From the sequence record NC_105617.1: a stretch of 50,709 bases of DNA. One strand, written 5' to 3'. The notes beneath the pieces were generated by a model. That model saw only the letters and a list, made by a program, of their open reading frames with translations, had not been told where the DNA came from and ran no database searches. The translations under genes were made by a program, and so were the position numbers. This DNA comes from a phage. Below are positions 16,648 through 26,107 of this stretch, piece after piece. Positions within the stretch are counted from its first letter, which is position 1, and each line of letters starts with the position of its first letter.

Positions 16648-19600
16648 ATGATTCAAAAAGTGATAAGTGGTTCGAAAGGCGGCTCTCCTAAGCCTCACAA
16701 TCCAGTTGAAATGGAAGATAACCTGATCTCAATCAACAAAATAAAGATTCTTCTGGCAGTATCTGATGGCGAGATTGACGAAACATTCAACCTCAAGCAG
16801 CTGATGTTTAACTCAGTCCCGGTGCAAAACGAGGATGGCTCTTTCAACTTTGAAGGCGTAACGGCAGAGTTCAGGTCGGGCACGCAGACTCAGGAATACA
16901 TCAAAGGTATGGAGGATAGCTCCAGCGAGGTAACTGTAAACCGTGAGATTACTACCGATAATCCATACACGATCTCAGTAACCAACAAGACGCTGTCGGC
17001 AATCCGTATCAAAATGTTCATGCCTCGCGGCGTACGCATTGAAAGTAACGGCGATAAGAACGGCGTTCGCGTTGAGTACGAAGTGCAGCAAGCGGTTGAT
17101 AGTGGTTCGTTTGAGACTGTTCTCACTGACGTAATCGAAGGCAAAACAATGTCAGGTTACGACCGAAGTCGTCGAATAAACTTACCAAACTTCAACAACC
17201 AGGTGATATTCAGGATTGTTAGAAAGACTCCAGACTCTGATAACTCAAACGTTGTCGATGCAATTCAGGTAAAAAGCTATGCTGAGGTTATCGATGCCAA
17301 GTTCCGTTATCCCCTGACTGGTCTTCTTTTTGTCGAGTTTGATTCGAAAATGTTCCCAAACCAACTACCTACGATCTCAATTCGTAAGCGCTGGAAGATT
17401 ATTAACGTTCCATCGAATTACGACCCTGAATCGCGAACATACAACGGAAATTGGGATGGTACTTTCAAGAAGGCGTGGACTAACAATCCGGCATGGGTTC
17501 TATACGACCTGATGATTAATCAGCGTTATGGACTGGATCAGAAAGAGCTTGGAATCTCCGTAGATAAATGGGCGCTATATGAGGCCGCGCAATATTGCGA
17601 TCAGATGGTTCCAGATGGAAAGGGTGGAACTGAGCCTCGCTACCTTTGCGACGTGATAATTCAGTCACAAACTGATGCATACAAAGTGATTCGAGATATT
17701 TGCTCAATATTCCGAGGTATGAGCTTTTGGAATGGTGAAAGCATTTCTGTAATCATCGACAGACCGCGTGAGCCTGCGTACATCTTCACTAACGACAACG
17801 TTGTTAATGGTGACTTCTCATACACGTTCGCAAGCGAAAAGAGCATGTACACGACGTGTAACGTGATGTTTGATGATGAACAAAACATGTATCAGCAGGA
17901 CGTTGAGCCAGTATTCGATCGAGAGGCCACTCTACGGTTCGGTAACAATGTAACCAGCATTACAGCGATCGGATGTACCAGACGCAGCGAGGCTAACCGA
18001 CGCGGGAGATGGATTCTGAAAACTAACCTCCGCAGCACTACGGTAAACTTCGCTACCGGGCTTGAGGGTATGATCCCGACCATCGGTGATGTGGTGGCGA
18101 TAGCTGACAACTTCTGGTCAAGTAACTTGACTATGAACCTGTCAGGAAGATTGCTCGAAGTGTCTGGACGTCAGATTTTCTTGCCGTTCCGAGTGGATGC
18201 GCGCGCAGGTGACTTTATTATCGTAAATAAGCCAGATGGAAAGCCCGTGAAGCGCACAATCTCAAGCGTTAGTGCAGATGGCAAGACCATAGAGATTAAC
18301 ATCGGCTTTGGCTTTCCTGTTAAGCCTAACACTGTATTCGCAATCGACCGCACTGACCTGGCATTGCAGCAGTACGTCGTGACAAAAATCGACAAGGGTG
18401 ATGACGATGAGGAATTTACCTACAAGATTACTGCGGTGGAGTACGATCCTAACAAGTACGACGAGATTGATTACGGCGTAAACATCGATGACAGACCGAC
18501 GAGCATTGTTGAGCCAGACCAGATTCCTAGACCGGAAAACGTGAAAGTATCCTCAGAGTCTAGAATCGTGCAGGGAATGAGCGTAGAAACGATGATTGTT
18601 AGCTGGGACAAAGTGCCGTACGCAGTTTTCTATGACGTCCAGTGGAGAAAGGATAATGGAAACTGGCAGAACGTCCCGCAGACGGCAAACAAGGAGGTTT
18701 ATGTTGAAGGGATTTACGCTGGAAACTATCAGGTTCGCGTGCGATCAGTAGCTGGTTCCGGAACGACTTCGGGATGGTCAAATATCGTCGCAGCGACGCT
18801 GACAGGTAAGCAGGGTGAGCCTGGTCGACCGATTAACCTTACAGCTACGGATGACGTTGTTTTTGGTATCCGTACAAAGTGGGGGTTCTCTGATGGTTCT
18901 GGAGATACGGCCTATACAGAATTGCAACAGTCACCGGATGGAACGGTTGATAACGCAAGTTTGCTATCTCTTATTCCATACCCGCAGCATGAGTATTATC
19001 ACTCACCGATGCCTGGAGGGAATATTGTGTGGTATCGGGTAAGGACGGTTGACAGGATCGGTAACGTATCTCAGTGGACTGATTTTGTCAGAGGCATGGC
19101 ATCAACAAACGTTGACGATATCATCGGAGAGATTTCTGTCGATATCGAAAACTCGCCGGGTTACGAGTGGCTTGTTGATAACGCAACAGACAACGCGGCG
19201 CAGAACGCAGCTAACGCAGAGGCGGCAATAGAAAACGCGCTCGCCAATGACAAAGATGCGATCTACATGAAGAAGGAGAACGGAAAACGAAAAGCTGAGT
19301 ACACGAAATCACTTAAACTTATTGCTGATGAGACGCAGGCGCGAGTGACGTCGATCGAGCAGTTGAAGGCAAGTTTTGACGATCAGATTAGCGCAAGCAA
19401 TAGCGAGTTGCGTGAAGTTATAGCAACCGAGACTGGAGCGATATCGCGTGAAATTGACCAACTCAAGGCTCAGATTGGTGACGATATTCAGGCGAGCTTG
19501 ACAGATATCAGAGAGGCTATCGCAAACGAGACTGAGGCCAGAACTCAGGCCGACTTAACGTTAAACGCGAGGCTTGGAAATAACGAGGCGGCACTTGCTC

Positions 19601-20100
19601 AAAAACTTGACTCTTGGAGTAATGCGAGTTCTACCGGGGCGATGTACGGCGTTAAGCTGGGGCTGAAATACAACGGGCAGGAATACAGCGCAGGAATGGC
19701 TATGTCCCTGATTGGTTCCGGCGCGGCTGTTAAGGCTCAGATTCTTTTTGAGGCGTCACGATTTGCAATCATGACCGGGATGAATGGAAAGACACAATAC
19801 CCGTTTGTTGTTGAGAATGGTCAGGTTATTTTAAGTAGCGCGATCATTAAAAACGGATTCATCACTAATGCTATGATTGGAAACGTTATTCAATCGAATA
19901 ACTTCTCTTCAGGTAGTGCTGGATGGATGGTTAACAAGAATGGATCGGCTGAGTTTAATGCGGTTACTGTCAGAGGCAAACTTTACGCAAGTAACGGTGA
20001 GTTTGCATTCAACGGAACGGGTAATACCGTTCAGATTAACAATAACGGCATCACGGTAAACTTACCTGGTGGCGGGAAAGTTGTAGTGGGGAGGTGGTAA
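16648..20100 (+). CDS. Tail tip / host specificity protein (lambda J-like)
   Basis: 1150 aa, last gene of the tail operon, fibronectin-III-like segment (WSNIVAATLTG), coiled-coil region, followed by terminator. Confidence 0.85.
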   Translation: MIQKVISGSKGGSPKPHNPVEMEDNLISINKIKILLAVSDGEIDETFNLKQLMFNSVPVQNEDGSFNFEGVTAEFRSGTQTQEYIKGMEDSSSEVTVNREITTDNPYTISVTNKTLSAIRIKMFMPRGVRIESNGDKNGVRVEYEVQQAVDSGSFETVLTDVIEGKTMSGYDRSRRINLPNFNNQVIFRIVRKTPDSDNSNVVDAIQVKSYAEVIDAKFRYPLTGLLFVEFDSKMFPNQLPTISIRKRWKIINVPSNYDPESRTYNGNWDGTFKKAWTNNPAWVLYDLMINQRYGLDQKELGISVDKWALYEAAQYCDQMVPDGKGGTEPRYLCDVIIQSQTDAYKVIRDICSIFRGMSFWNGESISVIIDRPREPAYIFTNDNVVNGDFSYTFASEKSMYTTCNVMFDDEQNMYQQDVEPVFDREATLRFGNNVTSITAIGCTRRSEANRRGRWILKTNLRSTTVNFATGLEGMIPTIGDVVAIADNFWSSNLTMNLSGRLLEVSGRQIFLPFRVDARAGDFIIVNKPDGKPVKRTISSVSADGKTIEINIGFGFPVKPNTVFAIDRTDLALQQYVVTKIDKGDDDEEFTYKITAVEYDPNKYDEIDYGVNIDDRPTSIVEPDQIPRPENVKVSSESRIVQGMSVETMIVSWDKVPYAVFYDVQWRKDNGNWQNVPQTANKEVYVEGIYAGNYQVRVRSVAGSGTTSGWSNIVAATLTGKQGEPGRPINLTATDDVVFGIRTKWGFSDGSGDTAYTELQQSPDGTVDNASLLSLIPYPQHEYYHSPMPGGNIVWYRVRTVDRIGNVSQWTDFVRGMASTNVDDIIGEISVDIENSPGYEWLVDNATDNAAQNAANAEAAIENALANDKDAIYMKKENGKRKAEYTKSLKLIADETQARVTSIEQLKASFDDQISASNSELREVIATETGAISREIDQLKAQIGDDIQASLTDIREAIANETEARTQADLTLNARLGNNEAALAQKLDSWSNASSTGAMYGVKLGLKYNGQEYSAGMAMSLIGSGAAVKAQILFEASRFAIMTGMNGKTQYPFVVENGQVILSSAIIKNGFITNAMIGNVIQSNNFSSGSAGWMVNKNGSAEFNAVTVRGKLYASNGEFAFNGTGNTVQINNNGITVNLPGGGKVVVGRW

Positions 20101-20107
20101 AATATAA

Positions 20108-20129
20108 GGGGCCGAGTGGCCCCTTTTTT
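20108..20129 (+). terminator. Intrinsic terminator after J-like gene
   Basis: ggggcc-gagt-ggcccc plus T6. Confidence 0.6.
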
Positions 20130-21102
20130 AATACATGTTCGGAAGAACTATCAACGGAGATTGAATTGCTATGTTCCTGTTAGGCATCACGAATTGCTGT
20201 CGAGAGTAGTTGCCAACAACCTTATTTTTAGCAACTCTTACCTTGTTTCCAGCCATTCTAATCCCGTTCATCCTTACGTGGTTATATCCTCCATTCCCTT
20301 CAATAAGTGCGCCGCAGTATGATAGCTGAATCAAGCTGTTTCCTATATCCTGATCCCCCGTTCCGATGTTGATTACGCGGTTGTAAACGAATGGCTTATT
20401 TACTGTAGAAAAAGTAACCTGACCTTGCTTGTTTGTCATTGTTATACCGTTACCGCCGCGAGGTGGAGTGTTATTGAATATAACTAAATCCATAGAAACA
20501 GAGGCTGTTACGTCATCTCTCCCCCCGTATGATGCATTCCTTACCGTGATGTTTGAACCGTCAAATCCAACGCTTACATTAGGATCGTCCCATCTGGCGA
20601 AAGGTATGCCGCTTACTGGCAACTTCATGTTTCCATTTACAGTTATACGTTTTGAGTATTGGCACGTCATTAATTTTGCAACGTTTGATATAGCTGTGAA
20701 ATCAGTAGAGTTTGCAACCAGTAAGCCCTCGTTTCTTGTTCCTACTGGCAATATTTCCATGACAGTACCAGCCCATTGAGGTAGCCCGTTATATGCACTC
20801 AATGCATCATCGCCTCTAATTATCACTCCGCTATTGCCATTCCTTGATACCGTCGTCGCATAAAACGGATCTGGTATAACAAGTGTCTGGTCGAACACCT
20901 CAATAACGTCAACAGGTTTTGTGAAAACAACAACAACCTGAGATCCCGGAGTTAATGGAGTATTTACTGTTAACGTCTTGTTTGATTGCGCCCTCTGATT
21001 AAAGTTAGCGCAGAATGACGGTGCGCGAAGCCCTGCCGTTATTTGCATCGCTGGTCGTCCGTCATTGTAGTTTACATATATCCCCTCACCCATAATTACC
21101 AC
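20128..21102 (-). CDS. Hypothetical beta-rich protein; candidate receptor-binding/host-range protein
   Basis: 324 aa, Gly/Asn/Thr/Val-rich; start overlaps the stop of the upstream Cor-like gene (same strand); function inferred from context only. Confidence 0.3.
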   Translation of the reverse strand: MVIMGEGIYVNYNDGRPAMQITAGLRAPSFCANFNQRAQSNKTLTVNTPLTPGSQVVVVFTKPVDVIEVFDQTLVIPDPFYATTVSRNGNSGVIIRGDDALSAYNGLPQWAGTVMEILPVGTRNEGLLVANSTDFTAISNVAKLMTCQYSKRITVNGNMKLPVSGIPFARWDDPNVSVGFDGSNITVRNASYGGRDDVTASVSMDLVIFNNTPPRGGNGITMTNKQGQVTFSTVNKPFVYNRVINIGTGDQDIGNSLIQLSYCGALIEGNGGYNHVRMNGIRMAGNKVRVAKNKVVGNYSRQQFVMPNRNIAIQSPLIVLPNMY

Positions 21103-21326
21103 TCCTTAGTTTTGACTGAGATCTTACCGCTAAAGTTGCCCTGATTGTCGTCTGATGAAAGGCCTTTGAATCGCATGTCAACTTCTCCAGCAGGCACTTT
21201 CTTACCGTCAATGAATCGCATCATGCAAGATCCGTAAGCGTAAGTAACACAGTCGCCATTCTTAAGATTCTGAGCGCAACCAGTCAGGATGAACGCAGCG
21301 GCGATAATGGTGATTAACTTTTTCAT
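21096..21326 (-). CDS. Cor-like outer-membrane lipoprotein (superinfection exclusion candidate)
   Basis: 76 aa; signal peptide with lipobox LTGC (MKKLITIIAAAFILTGC); own sigma70-like promoter upstream; size and position next to tail genes as for cor in T1/phi80-type phages. Confidence 0.5.
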   Translation of the reverse strand: MKKLITIIAAAFILTGCAQNLKNGDCVTYAYGSCMMRFIDGKKVPAGEVDMRFKGLSSDDNQGNFSGKISVKTKEW

Positions 21327-21355
21327 TTGTATGCCCTCGTCGTTAGTGTGTTTGA

Positions 21356-21384
21356 ATTGTATGTCGCATTTACTTTTATTGCAA
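21356..21384 (-). promoter_or_regulatory. Sigma70-like promoter for cor-like operon
   Basis: Minus strand TTGCAA-17 bp-TACAAT, about 25 nt upstream of RBS GAGGG. Confidence 0.5.
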
Positions 21385-21399
21385 TAGTTCGATTACAAT

Positions 21400-21790
21400 T
21401 TTTTTTCGCGTAACAGGTGTCTATTTTTGTAACTGGAAGTGGTGTTACAAAATCGACCTCATTCGACCGCAGGTAGATATGATAAAAACTCTATATAATA
21501 TATATAGATAGATAATATTTAATTTTAGCTTTATATATATAATTATTGCTGTGTAACAGTTGTCTATCATGTAACAGGTGATTTGATTGATTCGTCAAAT
21601 TTCTATCATATATGTTCAAAATTTAATCAATCTTGGTTCTATTCATGGATATCTGTGTATTTATAAGAAAAAGCGGTTACAAGTGTTACACAATATACAC
21701 CACATAAAATCAGTGTTAATCTATTGATTCCATTGATGCTGGTTGTAACTTGAGCGATATAGACACACGATTACACACCAATTACATGTA
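21400..21790. repeat. AT-rich divergent control region with iteron-like repeats (hub 1)
   Basis: GTAACAG(G/T)TGTCTAT at 21411 and 21556, further GTAACAGGTG/GTTACAA copies, long (TA)n tracts 21490-21545. Confidence 0.5.
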
Positions 21791-21795
21791 TTCGA

Positions 21796-21823
21796 TTGAC
21801 TAAACGCTGTTAATGGCTATAAT
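21796..21823 (+). promoter_or_regulatory. Consensus-like sigma70 promoter for exonuclease-erf-ssb operon
   Basis: TTGACT-16 bp-TATAAT, 31 nt upstream of the start codon at 21855. Confidence 0.55.
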
Positions 21824-21854
21824 GGATTCATCGTAAACGAAGGAGATAAACGAA

Positions 21855-24104: not shown

Positions 24105-24135
24105 CAAAAAGCCCCGCAATGCGGGGCGTCTTTTT
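24105..24135. terminator. Bidirectional intrinsic terminator between ssb and tail fiber
   Basis: gccccgcaatgcggggc hairpin flanked by A-run and T-run. Confidence 0.65.
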
Positions 24136-26107
24136 ACTTACTATTAAGTAAAGATTTTACAATCAATTTCAATTCCTCAACTTCATTCCTTAATGAAACA
24201 ATTTCCTCCTCCTGCTCTTTGCACACCTGTAGCGTGTAGGCCGTTACAGCTCCATAGTCAACAGTGTAATATCGCTCTTCAAGAAAAAGAGGAGTCCCAT
24301 CCTGATTAACACCGTAAACACCATCCTCTTTCCTTCTGTAAGTTGTTCCAACAGCCTCCGGAACAACATCCATGAACTCCTGAGCTATAACCCCAGCATA
24401 AGGTAGTCCATCGTCCTTAAATGTGTACGTGTATCCTCCAACCTTTGACAGACCGCTCCTTGCGTTCTCTATAACCTTTATGTTTTCCTTTAAATCCCTG
24501 TCAGAGGTCTGATTAAAGGCTTTCGCCTCAGCAGTTCCTGATATGTTTAGAACGTGGCTATTATCGCTGTTTCTCTGTATATACATAGCGTAAGCCGAAG
24601 CGCCACCAGTCTCAAATAGAAATTCTATAACCCCAGGTCGCCCGGTATTGTTTCCCCACAATCTCTGTATTCCGTTAAGAGACGGAGATTGAACTTGGTG
24701 CGCCATGCTTCTTGAGCCATTGACATGATTAATGTTTCCAGCATTAACCCTTACCGCCCTTCCGGATTGTGCTGTTATTGCAACATCCCCAGGACCTTCA
24801 AGAGTTAATGAGTTTTTACCAATATCTGAATAAAGCGTTATATTTGTTGTTTCATTTGAACCCTTACCCAAAAAGAACGCTCTTGTTTTGTTTTTCCTGT
24901 AACCAGATAGAATTGGAGCGTCGTTACTCTCTGGTCTTATGTCTAAATATGAATTAGTGGTTAGACCTTTCGCGGCAGATAAAGCTCCTGGAACTCTTAA
25001 GTCACCGTTCTTTGAAAAATCAAGGAATTGAGGGTTGTTATTATCACTCCTGTTAATTAATGAAAAATTACCACCGCCGCTAGCCCTGATCTCACCTTGA
25101 GAAATAACATCCCCTCCGATAGATCCGGAGTAGTGAACCCATACAGTTGACGGCCCTACAGTGTTTAACTGCCCGACAGATTGGTTTACAATGCTCCCGT
25201 TCGTGTTCTTAATACCTAAAAACTCAGGTGTATTTTTTTTACCTAACCCCAAATTATCACGGGACTTTGATGCATCCTGAACATCACTAAGGTTTTTATC
25301 CTTGCGAAGTAGATTCGCTGCATCAACGCTATTTGCTGCGTCCTTAGCTTCCTGCGCGCTTACTGACGCCGCACCCTTTGCGCTAACCGCAGAATCACGC
25401 GCCGCCTGGGCGTCGTTTTTTGCTGAGGTTGCAGTTTGCGCCGCCGCCTGGGCGTTGTTAACGTAACCTGACAGATCTCCTTTGGCGTCATTGATTGCTT
25501 TAATGGCTGCTTTCTCTTCCGTGTCGATGTGCGTAATCGCCGCTGATTCTTTAGAGCCTACATCTGTGATCGCTTGTTCTTTTGCTGCATTGATGCTACC
25601 GACTGCCCCGTCAACAATTTGCTGAACTTGGCCTTTGGTGGCTTTAGCTTCGTCACGTGCTGCATTCGCTGAGTCGCGAGCAAGTTCCGCTTGATTCTGT
25701 GCAGATTCAGCGGCTGATTTGTTCGCCTTAATTTCTTCAACGATGCGGTTAAGGTTATCCATATCCAGACTCGCAATGATATCCATTGCCCCGGCAATCT
25801 CAGTCTCTTTGCTTTGATAGTATCGAAGCGTCTCAGCGACGTTTTGAGCCAATCCGTTAACAGTCAGTGAATCGTTAAGCAAGATCACATACTTACCGTC
25901 AGAGGCAGTCTGACCGTCGGTAGAGATAGCCTTTAATTCTGTGTCGCTAACGATATCGCTAATCACCGCCAGCTTAATTGGTTGCTCAAGGAATACGATA
26001 GTTGCACCTACGCGAATTAGAGCAAGCTGATCTTTCCATTTTGTATCGGTTCCGTGAACCGTTCCGTCTGCATCCATCGATGCTGTACCGCGTCTGTATA
26101 AAGCCAT
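24134..26107 (-). CDS. Tail fiber with C-terminal intramolecular chaperone (peptidase S74-like) domain
   Basis: 657 aa; C-terminal segment SGLSKVGGYTYTFKDDGLPYAGVIAQEFMDVVPEAV typical of self-cleaving fiber chaperone domains; Ala/Gln-rich coiled-coil shaft. Confidence 0.7.
   Translation of the reverse strand: MALYRRGTASMDADGTVHGTDTKWKDQLALIRVGATIVFLEQPIKLAVISDIVSDTELKAISTDGQTASDGKYVILLNDSLTVNGLAQNVAETLRYYQSKETEIAGAMDIIASLDMDNLNRIVEEIKANKSAAESAQNQAELARDSANAARDEAKATKGQVQQIVDGAVGSINAAKEQAITDVGSKESAAITHIDTEEKAAIKAINDAKGDLSGYVNNAQAAAQTATSAKNDAQAARDSAVSAKGAASVSAQEAKDAANSVDAANLLRKDKNLSDVQDASKSRDNLGLGKKNTPEFLGIKNTNGSIVNQSVGQLNTVGPSTVWVHYSGSIGGDVISQGEIRASGGGNFSLINRSDNNNPQFLDFSKNGDLRVPGALSAAKGLTTNSYLDIRPESNDAPILSGYRKNKTRAFFLGKGSNETTNITLYSDIGKNSLTLEGPGDVAITAQSGRAVRVNAGNINHVNGSRSMAHQVQSPSLNGIQRLWGNNTGRPGVIEFLFETGGASAYAMYIQRNSDNSHVLNISGTAEAKAFNQTSDRDLKENIKVIENARSGLSKVGGYTYTFKDDGLPYAGVIAQEFMDVVPEAVGTTYRRKEDGVYGVNQDGTPLFLEERYYTVDYGAVTAYTLQVCKEQEEEIVSLRNEVEELKLIVKSLLNSK

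Follow-up and report, generated by a model that had tools for sequence, protein, structure and literature searches.

In the Drexlerviridae, Dhillonvirus and Queuovirinae, a gene pair downstream of gpJ falls into allelic types, and in every case the type agrees with the terminal receptor of the phage (Maffei et al., PMC8594841). One of these allelic types goes with the receptor LptD, and the loci move horizontally (PMC8594841). Here we describe a pair of this kind in the phage sequence NC_105617.1 (50,709 nucleotides (nt); we refer to this whole stretch of DNA as the window). The pair lies directly after the J-like tail-tip gene, on the opposite strand, and encodes a 321-amino-acid (aa) protein and a 76-aa lipoprotein. 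Judging from sequence comparisons, it is very probably the cassette of an LptD-type receptor-binding protein (RBP) and an exclusion lipoprotein known from small siphophages, aimed at LptD/LptE and not at FhuA.

Both kinds of protein have been solved in complex with the receptor. The RBP of Oekolampad (Bas18, a Dhillonvirus) was solved by cryo-electron microscopy (cryo-EM) within the extracellular lumen of open-state LptD/LptE (Dunbar et al., PMC12685063). The interface between this RBP and LptD is ~1,700 Å2 and involves extracellular loops (EL) 3-5 and EL11; the LptD substitutions D352Y (EL4) and Y671N (EL11) abolish binding and infection (PMC12685063). Rtp45, the lipoprotein of phage Rtp, attaches to LptD from the periplasm, at a site between LptE and LptM, and extends a hairpin up the lumen, displacing EL4 by up to 20 Å and thereby making RBP binding impossible (PMC12685063). 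Use of LptD has also been reported for related phages. Rtp44, the RBP of Rtp, shares 96% identity with that of AugustePiccard, an LptD-dependent phage (PMC8594841, PMC13035648). OzMSK is LptD-dependent as well, and the Tunavirus SH6 is a predicted LptD user (Black et al., PMC13035648).

We found that the genome in the window is that of a T1-like siphophage of the genus Tunavirus (Drexlerviridae). Over 1.8 kb around the gene pair, DNA identity is 99.8% to Escherichia phage vB_EcoS_SA30RD, whose GenBank record labels the two products 'hypothetical protein' and 'lipoprotein', and 90-96% to the Tunaviruses Chapo, EF3-1, XJA18-XJ-2024 and ULIM2. A first-pass annotation, made from the letters of the window, had placed two reverse-strand genes directly after the J-like gene, and both open reading frames were found there (Table 1). 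It had also described the lipoprotein gene as overlapping the start of a 324-aa protein, and this part had to be revised. The longest reading of the larger frame, which ends at 20128, begins at a GTG at 21102 and gives 324 aa. A start at the ATG at 21093, which has AAGGAG 8 nt upstream, gives 321 aa. We used the ATG because all homologues, including the construct in the PDB, begin with MG at that point. With this start, the two genes are 2 nt apart and do not overlap. The lipoprotein gene has a GAGGG ribosome-binding site 8 nt before its ATG, and tight coupling and co-transcription of the two genes are plausible. Searches with Rfam (gathering thresholds) and ARAGORN across the whole window gave no match.

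We found that the 321-aa protein belongs to the family of solved LptD-binding RBPs. Its match to Pfam PF20051 (DUF6453) had an E-value of 8.6e-123 (409.8 bits; cut-off 25) and spanned residues 4-297, corresponding to profile positions 1-290 of 291. A phmmer search of the PDB matched 9RPT_C over residues 1-321 (E 4e-174), as well as chain C of 9RPW and 9RQI. These chains are one set of solved matches, all of them the Oekolampad RBP (gene bas18_0025). Over its full length the protein is 79.4% identical to bas18_0025, 43.9% identical to Shfl1p51 and 34.7% identical to Rtp44. Gln299, which hydrogen-bonds LptD Ser350 in the structure of the Oekolampad RBP, is kept. When four LptD-type RBPs were aligned, the columns of an N-terminal MGxGIxxxxNDGRxxMxIT and a C-terminal PxMY were invariant. 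The gene also has the length and the placement of this type (about 930-970 bp, convergent, right after the J-like gene and preceded by the lipoprotein gene), and the layout of J, a convergent RBP gene and a lipoprotein gene is common to Oekolampad, Shfl1 and Rtp.

These results bear on what had been predicted for this protein. The first-pass annotation had offered two roles, receptor-binding protein or second exclusion factor. The first is upheld by the close identity to a structurally characterised RBP, and we rejected the second. The description of the protein as rich in Gly, Asn and Thr was roughly right (Val 10.9%, Asn 10.6%, Gly 10.0%, Thr 7.2%), and its description as beta-rich fits the two lectin-like beta-sandwiches reported for homologues (PMC13035648).

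We found that the 76-aa lipoprotein is of the same family as Rtp45. It scored 86.2 bits against PF24052 (Phage_lipoprotein; cut-off 27), compared with 128 bits for Rtp45, 76.3 bits for SE-Oeko and 84.1 bits for Shfl1p52. In the PDB it matched chain 9RPS_D, which is Rtp45 (E 1.1e-9). The mature lipoprotein is 90% identical to Shfl1p52, 69.5% identical to bas18_0026, the exclusion (SE) lipoprotein of Oekolampad, and 38% identical to Rtp45. Its C26 and C34 (Cys-x7-Cys) align with the C30/C38 disulfide of Rtp45, its VPAGEVD hairpin segment is identical to that of Rtp45, and the C-terminal KEW is conserved. The lipobox LTG is followed by C17 and A18. There is no Asp at position +2 and thus no signal for retention in the inner membrane. 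We read this lipoprotein signal from the sequence because the match to LPAM_1 (17.9 bits) was below the cut-off of 20. The earlier recognition of a small lipoprotein with the lipobox LTGC was correct, and the exclusion role proposed for it agrees with the shared Pfam family and the direct match to the Rtp45 chain. A lipoprotein of the temperate Enterobacteria phage mEp021 (MH706966, 52682-52852) was 40% identical to the mature lipoprotein (E 1e-4).

The cassette resembles each of the three closest LptD-type systems without being equal to any of them. It is like that of Oekolampad in the order of the two genes, in their orientation after the J-like gene and in the Pfam families of both proteins. 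It differs in the family of the phage that carries it (Drexlerviridae/Tunavirus) and in the lipoprotein signal peptide, and its lipoprotein is of the Shfl1 lineage, not the Oekolampad lineage. The Rtp44/Rtp45 cassette of Rtp (Braunvirinae; PDB 9RPS, Rtp45 on LptDE(M)) has the same architecture and the same Pfam families, and the lipoproteins share the motifs described above; identity is low for both proteins. The cassette of Shfl1/SH6/Sfin-1-type Tunaviruses (Shfl1p51 and Shfl1p52) sits on the same genus backbone. Its RBP core is another allele.

In the earlier reading, the lipoprotein was Cor-like and blocked FhuA, and its partner was either an RBP for FhuA or another exclusion factor. We consider this very improbable. 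The likeness to the FhuA-directed cor cassette of T1 is genuine as far as it goes. Both cassettes occupy the same slot between J and the exoVIII gene, in the same position and orientation of cor and the lipoprotein gene, with the same promoter block and 5' untranslated region, and they serve the same general purpose. In addition, the first 17 residues, MKKLITIIAAAFILTGC (signal peptide through lipobox Cys), are identical to those of T1 Cor. These residues carry the BLASTP match to T1 Cor, and they account for the weak match to PHROG 1119 'Cor' (E 6e-6), which covers residues 1-33 only, essentially the signal peptide. In contrast, the mature parts are unrelated (16% identical), and T1 Cor has neither the Cys pair nor the VPAGEVD motif. 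T1 Cor reached 17.7 bits on PF24052, under the cut-off that the lipoprotein in the window easily passes. The T1 cassette also consists of three genes, two of them on the plus strand, and contains no DUF6453 protein. Homologues of ST32 and ST31 accompany cor in FhuA-dependent phages (PMC13164509). A tblastn search with T1 ST32 and ST31 against the whole window gave nothing below E 0.5, and neither of the two is a DUF6453 protein. FhuA-type genes are thus absent from the window. The partner of the lipoprotein, moreover, has 79% identity to a protein whose complex with LptDE is solved. By its sequence, the lipoprotein is not a member of the Cor family (T1, phi80, N15, HK022).

The first-pass annotation had also likened the locus to the llp/oad neighbourhood of T5. 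The logic of an RBP plus an exclusion lipoprotein is indeed shared: in the FhuA-directed T5 pair, pb5 (oad) is likewise a distinct RBP carried on the central fibre tip, and Llp is a small periplasm-facing outer-membrane lipoprotein that disables the receptor. The likeness does not extend to sequence. Searches of the PDB with the two proteins (at E up to 1 and up to 10) returned no chain of T5 pb5 or Llp, and we therefore use the comparison as an analogy only. The T5 and Rtp lipoproteins also work differently. Llp acts on FhuA by long-range allostery, and Rtp45 physically displaces a loop of LptD (PMC12685063).

Existing database labels suggest yet other functions. The identical lipoprotein is labelled 'u-spanin' in Chapo (MT682715, 30705-30908 region), and the DUF6453 RBP is labelled 'membrane protein' by RefSeq and PHROG (PHROG 1265). 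If these labels were right, the lipoprotein would be a lysis protein (spanin) and the 321-aa protein a membrane protein or moron, to which we give almost no credence. The lipoprotein lacks a C-terminal transmembrane segment and is hydrophobic in its signal peptide alone, where the 19-residue hydropathy peaks at 1.54 (residue 4). Hydrophobic segments are absent from the 321-aa protein altogether (maximum hydropathy 1.19). Furthermore, the locus adjoins the tail-tip gene, not a lysis cassette, and the lipoprotein gene has the RBP gene and recombination genes as neighbours. For both proteins there are matches to solved chains of known role. Given those structures, the labels 'u-spanin' and 'membrane protein' look wrong.

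We found that the LptD-type cassette replaces the cor cassette of T1 at well-defined boundaries. In a blastn comparison with T1, J was 91% identical, falling to 84%, and the homology ended at ~19944. On the other side, DNA homology to T1 ran from 23000 down to 21276 and stopped right after the lipobox codons CTGACTGGTTGC. Relative to T1, the swap replaces ST32, ST31, the mature part of Cor and the C-terminal ~50 codons of J, which encode a different sequence in T1. The sequence of the last ~45 aa (VRGxLYAxxGEFAFNGTxNTVQINNNGITVNLPGGGxVVVGxW) is present in J of the window, Shfl1, Rtp and Oekolampad and is not found in T1. The J C-terminus thus co-varies with the type of cassette, and it is presumed to be the docking site for the RBP. 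The 205-bp stretch with the promoter and the signal peptide was found in 63 Tunavirus records, with either Cor or a lipoprotein of the PF24052 type.

A second set of boundaries lies inside the cassette. Compared with Shfl1, the DNA was ~90% identical up to 20143 and again from 21009 (RBP codon ~28), with no DNA match between these positions. The ~90% stretches include J and the terminator, both ends of the RBP gene (the last five codons and the first ~28) and the lipoprotein gene. Only the RBP core is swapped, and it has 44% protein identity to that of Shfl1. The core was found at an identity of at least 90% (nt) in five records only. Its nearest relatives outside Tunavirus in the phage search were those of Dhillonvirus (Oekolampad-type), with up to 79% aa identity. 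DNA identity to Oekolampad over the whole module was 68.6%, and by this measure Oekolampad is not a recent donor. The locus in the window is a chimera: a lipoprotein of the Shfl1 type and an RBP core of the Oekolampad type, on a promoter and signal-peptide scaffold of the T1 type. We found no description of this combination in the papers on these modules that we consulted.

A swapped core might have come to recognise another outer-membrane receptor, or a different range of LptD alleles, leaving the lipoprotein partly mismatched. The exchange of the RBP core was independent of the lipoprotein, 66 positions (21% of residues) differ between the RBP and the Oekolampad protein, and horizontal transfer is especially frequent at RBP loci (PMC8594841). 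Still, we regard such a drift as improbable. Family members at 33-43% identity still use LptD, and the rule that the allelic type matches the receptor (Maffei et al., PMC8594841) speaks against a change of receptor within this type. The same combination of lipoprotein and RBP core is kept in five Tunavirus genomes at 90-99.8% nt identity, which argues that the combination works.

The boundaries suggest a way in which such loci could change. We propose, tentatively and with slightly less than even confidence, that the locus records a rewiring of receptor specificity through fixed 'linker' sequences that act as recombination joints. Candidate linkers are the promoter plus the signal peptide of the lipoprotein, the two ends of the RBP gene (~28 codons at the start and five at the end) along with the terminator, and the C-terminal part of J. 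One joint, exactly at the lipobox Cys, may turn a cor gene into a gene for an LptD-directed lipoprotein. A second pair of joints may allow the RBP core to be replaced while the resident lipoprotein stays.

The proposed path of the two proteins follows that of their homologues. By analogy, the 321-aa RBP would be terminal on the tail and would dock on the C-terminus of the J-like protein through its conserved N-terminal ~26 residues and the C-terminal PNMY; the conserved 'base' of such RBPs is thought to mediate tail assembly (PMC13035648). Its loop-bearing tip would enter the extracellular lumen of open LptD/LptE and touch EL3-5 and EL11, and this insertion would make adsorption irreversible and trigger ejection of the DNA. 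The 76-aa protein would be exported and receive its lipid at Cys17, and its Ala at +2 would direct it to the outer membrane. There it would take the place described for Rtp45, on the periplasmic face of LptD with LptE and LptM on either side, and push a beta-hairpin up the lumen. Because EL4 would be displaced by the lipoprotein, RBPs of this and other LptD-targeting phages would be unable to bind. The infected cell would be protected from superinfection, and progeny would be spared loss on cell debris. In this scheme the target of the lipoprotein is the receptor rather than the RBP, and therefore an Shfl1-lineage lipoprotein should also work for an Oekolampad-lineage RBP core.

Several points weigh against reading the pair as an LptD-directed cassette, or against details of that reading. 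The use of LptD by this phage and by SA30RD is drawn from homologues, not from experiment. The 66 differences from the Oekolampad RBP may include positions at the LptD interface. A single-sequence AlphaFold2 model of the 321-aa protein had a mean predicted local distance difference test (pLDDT) score of 30 and a predicted template modelling (pTM) score of 0.18 and was not used. Rtp45, the source of the exclusion mechanism, is just 38% identical to the mature lipoprotein, and exclusion by the Oekolampad-type lipoprotein, whose expression failed, is putative (PMC12685063). We assumed from the shared receptor that the lipoprotein matches the RBP, because their lineages differ (Shfl1-type and Oekolampad-type, respectively). 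The putative promoter of the pair is a consensus match only.

That promoter, TTGCAA-17-TACAAT, had been assigned to the lipoprotein gene in the first-pass annotation. We found that the element is present and that it lies within a 32-nt block that is invariant among the window, T1 (upstream of cor) and Shfl1. However, promoter-like sites were no commoner in the region than in shuffled sequences (7 vs 6.4 +/- 2.4), and the promoter given by the depositors of SA30RD is another one, ~30 nt farther upstream. At the other end of the pair, the hairpin between the convergent J and RBP genes has 6 GC pairs in its stem and T-runs on either strand. In SA30RD it carries a terminator annotation for each strand, and it is kept in Shfl1. 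The lipoprotein and RBP genes probably form one transcript, from the backbone promoter shared with T1 cor to the bidirectional hairpin beside J.

Table 1. Features of the predicted LptD-type cassette and its surroundings in the window
Feature	Coordinates	Strand	Basis
J-like tail-tip gene	16648..20100	+	1150 aa
J 3' end (last ~50 codons + stop), accompanies LptD-type cassette	19945..20100	+	T1 J homology ends ~19944
Bidirectional intrinsic terminator between convergent J and RBP genes	20106..20125	both	8-bp stem, T-runs
RBP gene, predicted LptD/LptE-targeting type (DUF6453), 321 aa + stop	20128..21093	-	PF20051, PDB 9RPT_C match
RBP core (about aa 29-316), exchanged vs Shfl1-type Tunaviruses	20144..21008	-	blastn gap vs Shfl1
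Predicted exclusion lipoprotein gene, Rtp45/SE-Oeko type (PF24052), 76 aa + stop	21096..21326	-	PF24052, PDB 9RPS_D match
Signal peptide + lipobox (MKKLITIIAAAFILTGC), Tunavirus backbone common with T1 cor	21276..21326	-	17/17 vs T1 Cor
Sigma-70-like promoter candidate TTGCAA-17-TACAAT, for lipoprotein-RBP transcript	21384..21356	-	9/12 consensus match

The promoter candidate lies in a 528-bp AT-rich divergent intergenic region (21327-21854) between the lipoprotein gene and the exoVIII gene. Four of the five copies of TGTAACA/TGTTACA in the window fall in this region (at 21443, 21552, 21570 and 21684), where 0.05 were expected, and the region has eight GTAAC pentamers against 1.2 expected. It also contains a 25-nt direct repeat (21395-21419 and 21556-21580). 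The 160 nt nearest the promoter (21321-21480), where the first copy of TGTAACA lies, are also conserved in T1 and Shfl1. The TGTAACA array could represent operator sites for a phage regulator of the divergent promoters.

Relatives of both proteins were also seen in podophages. The Kuravirus podophage SU10 (KM044272) encodes a DUF6453 protein, SU10_019 (343 aa, 83.5 bits), directly after the tail-needle gene gp18. It is 22% identical to the RBP in the window over aa 111-315 (E 3e-13). The tail-needle protein itself, SU10_018, which is of similar length, was ruled out as the homologue (E 0.74). Elsewhere in the SU10 genome, SU10_0104 is a strong PF24052 lipoprotein (123.9 bits), and weak matches to DUF6453 and PF24052 occur across phiEco32-like phages. 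The cryo-EM paper on SU10 does not mention gp19, and a literature search found no link between Kuravirus and LptD as a receptor. These matches suggest that SU10-type podophages may carry an unrecognised pair of an LptD-directed RBP and an exclusion protein.

The window contains a second mosaic host-range locus, the lateral tail-fibre gene (24134-26107, minus strand). It encodes 657 aa by the list of open reading frames and is 2127 bp in the annotation of SA30RD. The fibre is just 'partially similar' to that of T1. The SA30RD orthologue, at 48% identity, is among the relatives of a Dhillonvirus fibre (2024, PMC11430396). That paper, on an 'intergeneric' tail-fibre gene, names SA30RD and was considered as a report on the RBP locus; its subject is the lateral tail fibre SA30RD_28.

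This type of module has been described before (2021 to 2025), together with its receptor, the two structures and its horizontal movement. New here are a further member, its particular chimera and the cleanly mapped joints. The labels 'hypothetical protein', 'membrane protein', 'u-spanin' and Cor-like are corrected for the two products. Our in silico receptor call for this phage and for Chapo, EF3-1, XJA18-XJ-2024 and ULIM2 is LptD, not FhuA. Therefore, T1-resistant fhuA/tonA laboratory and production strains would stay unprotected against these phages, and the relevant countermeasure would be engineering of LptD loop 11 (PMC13035648). If receptor specificity is indeed rewired through fixed linkers, then a lipoprotein of the Rtp45 type would be indifferent to the RBP allele and would exclude all LptD-targeting phages, and the joints would be ready-made sites for receptor-swap engineering.

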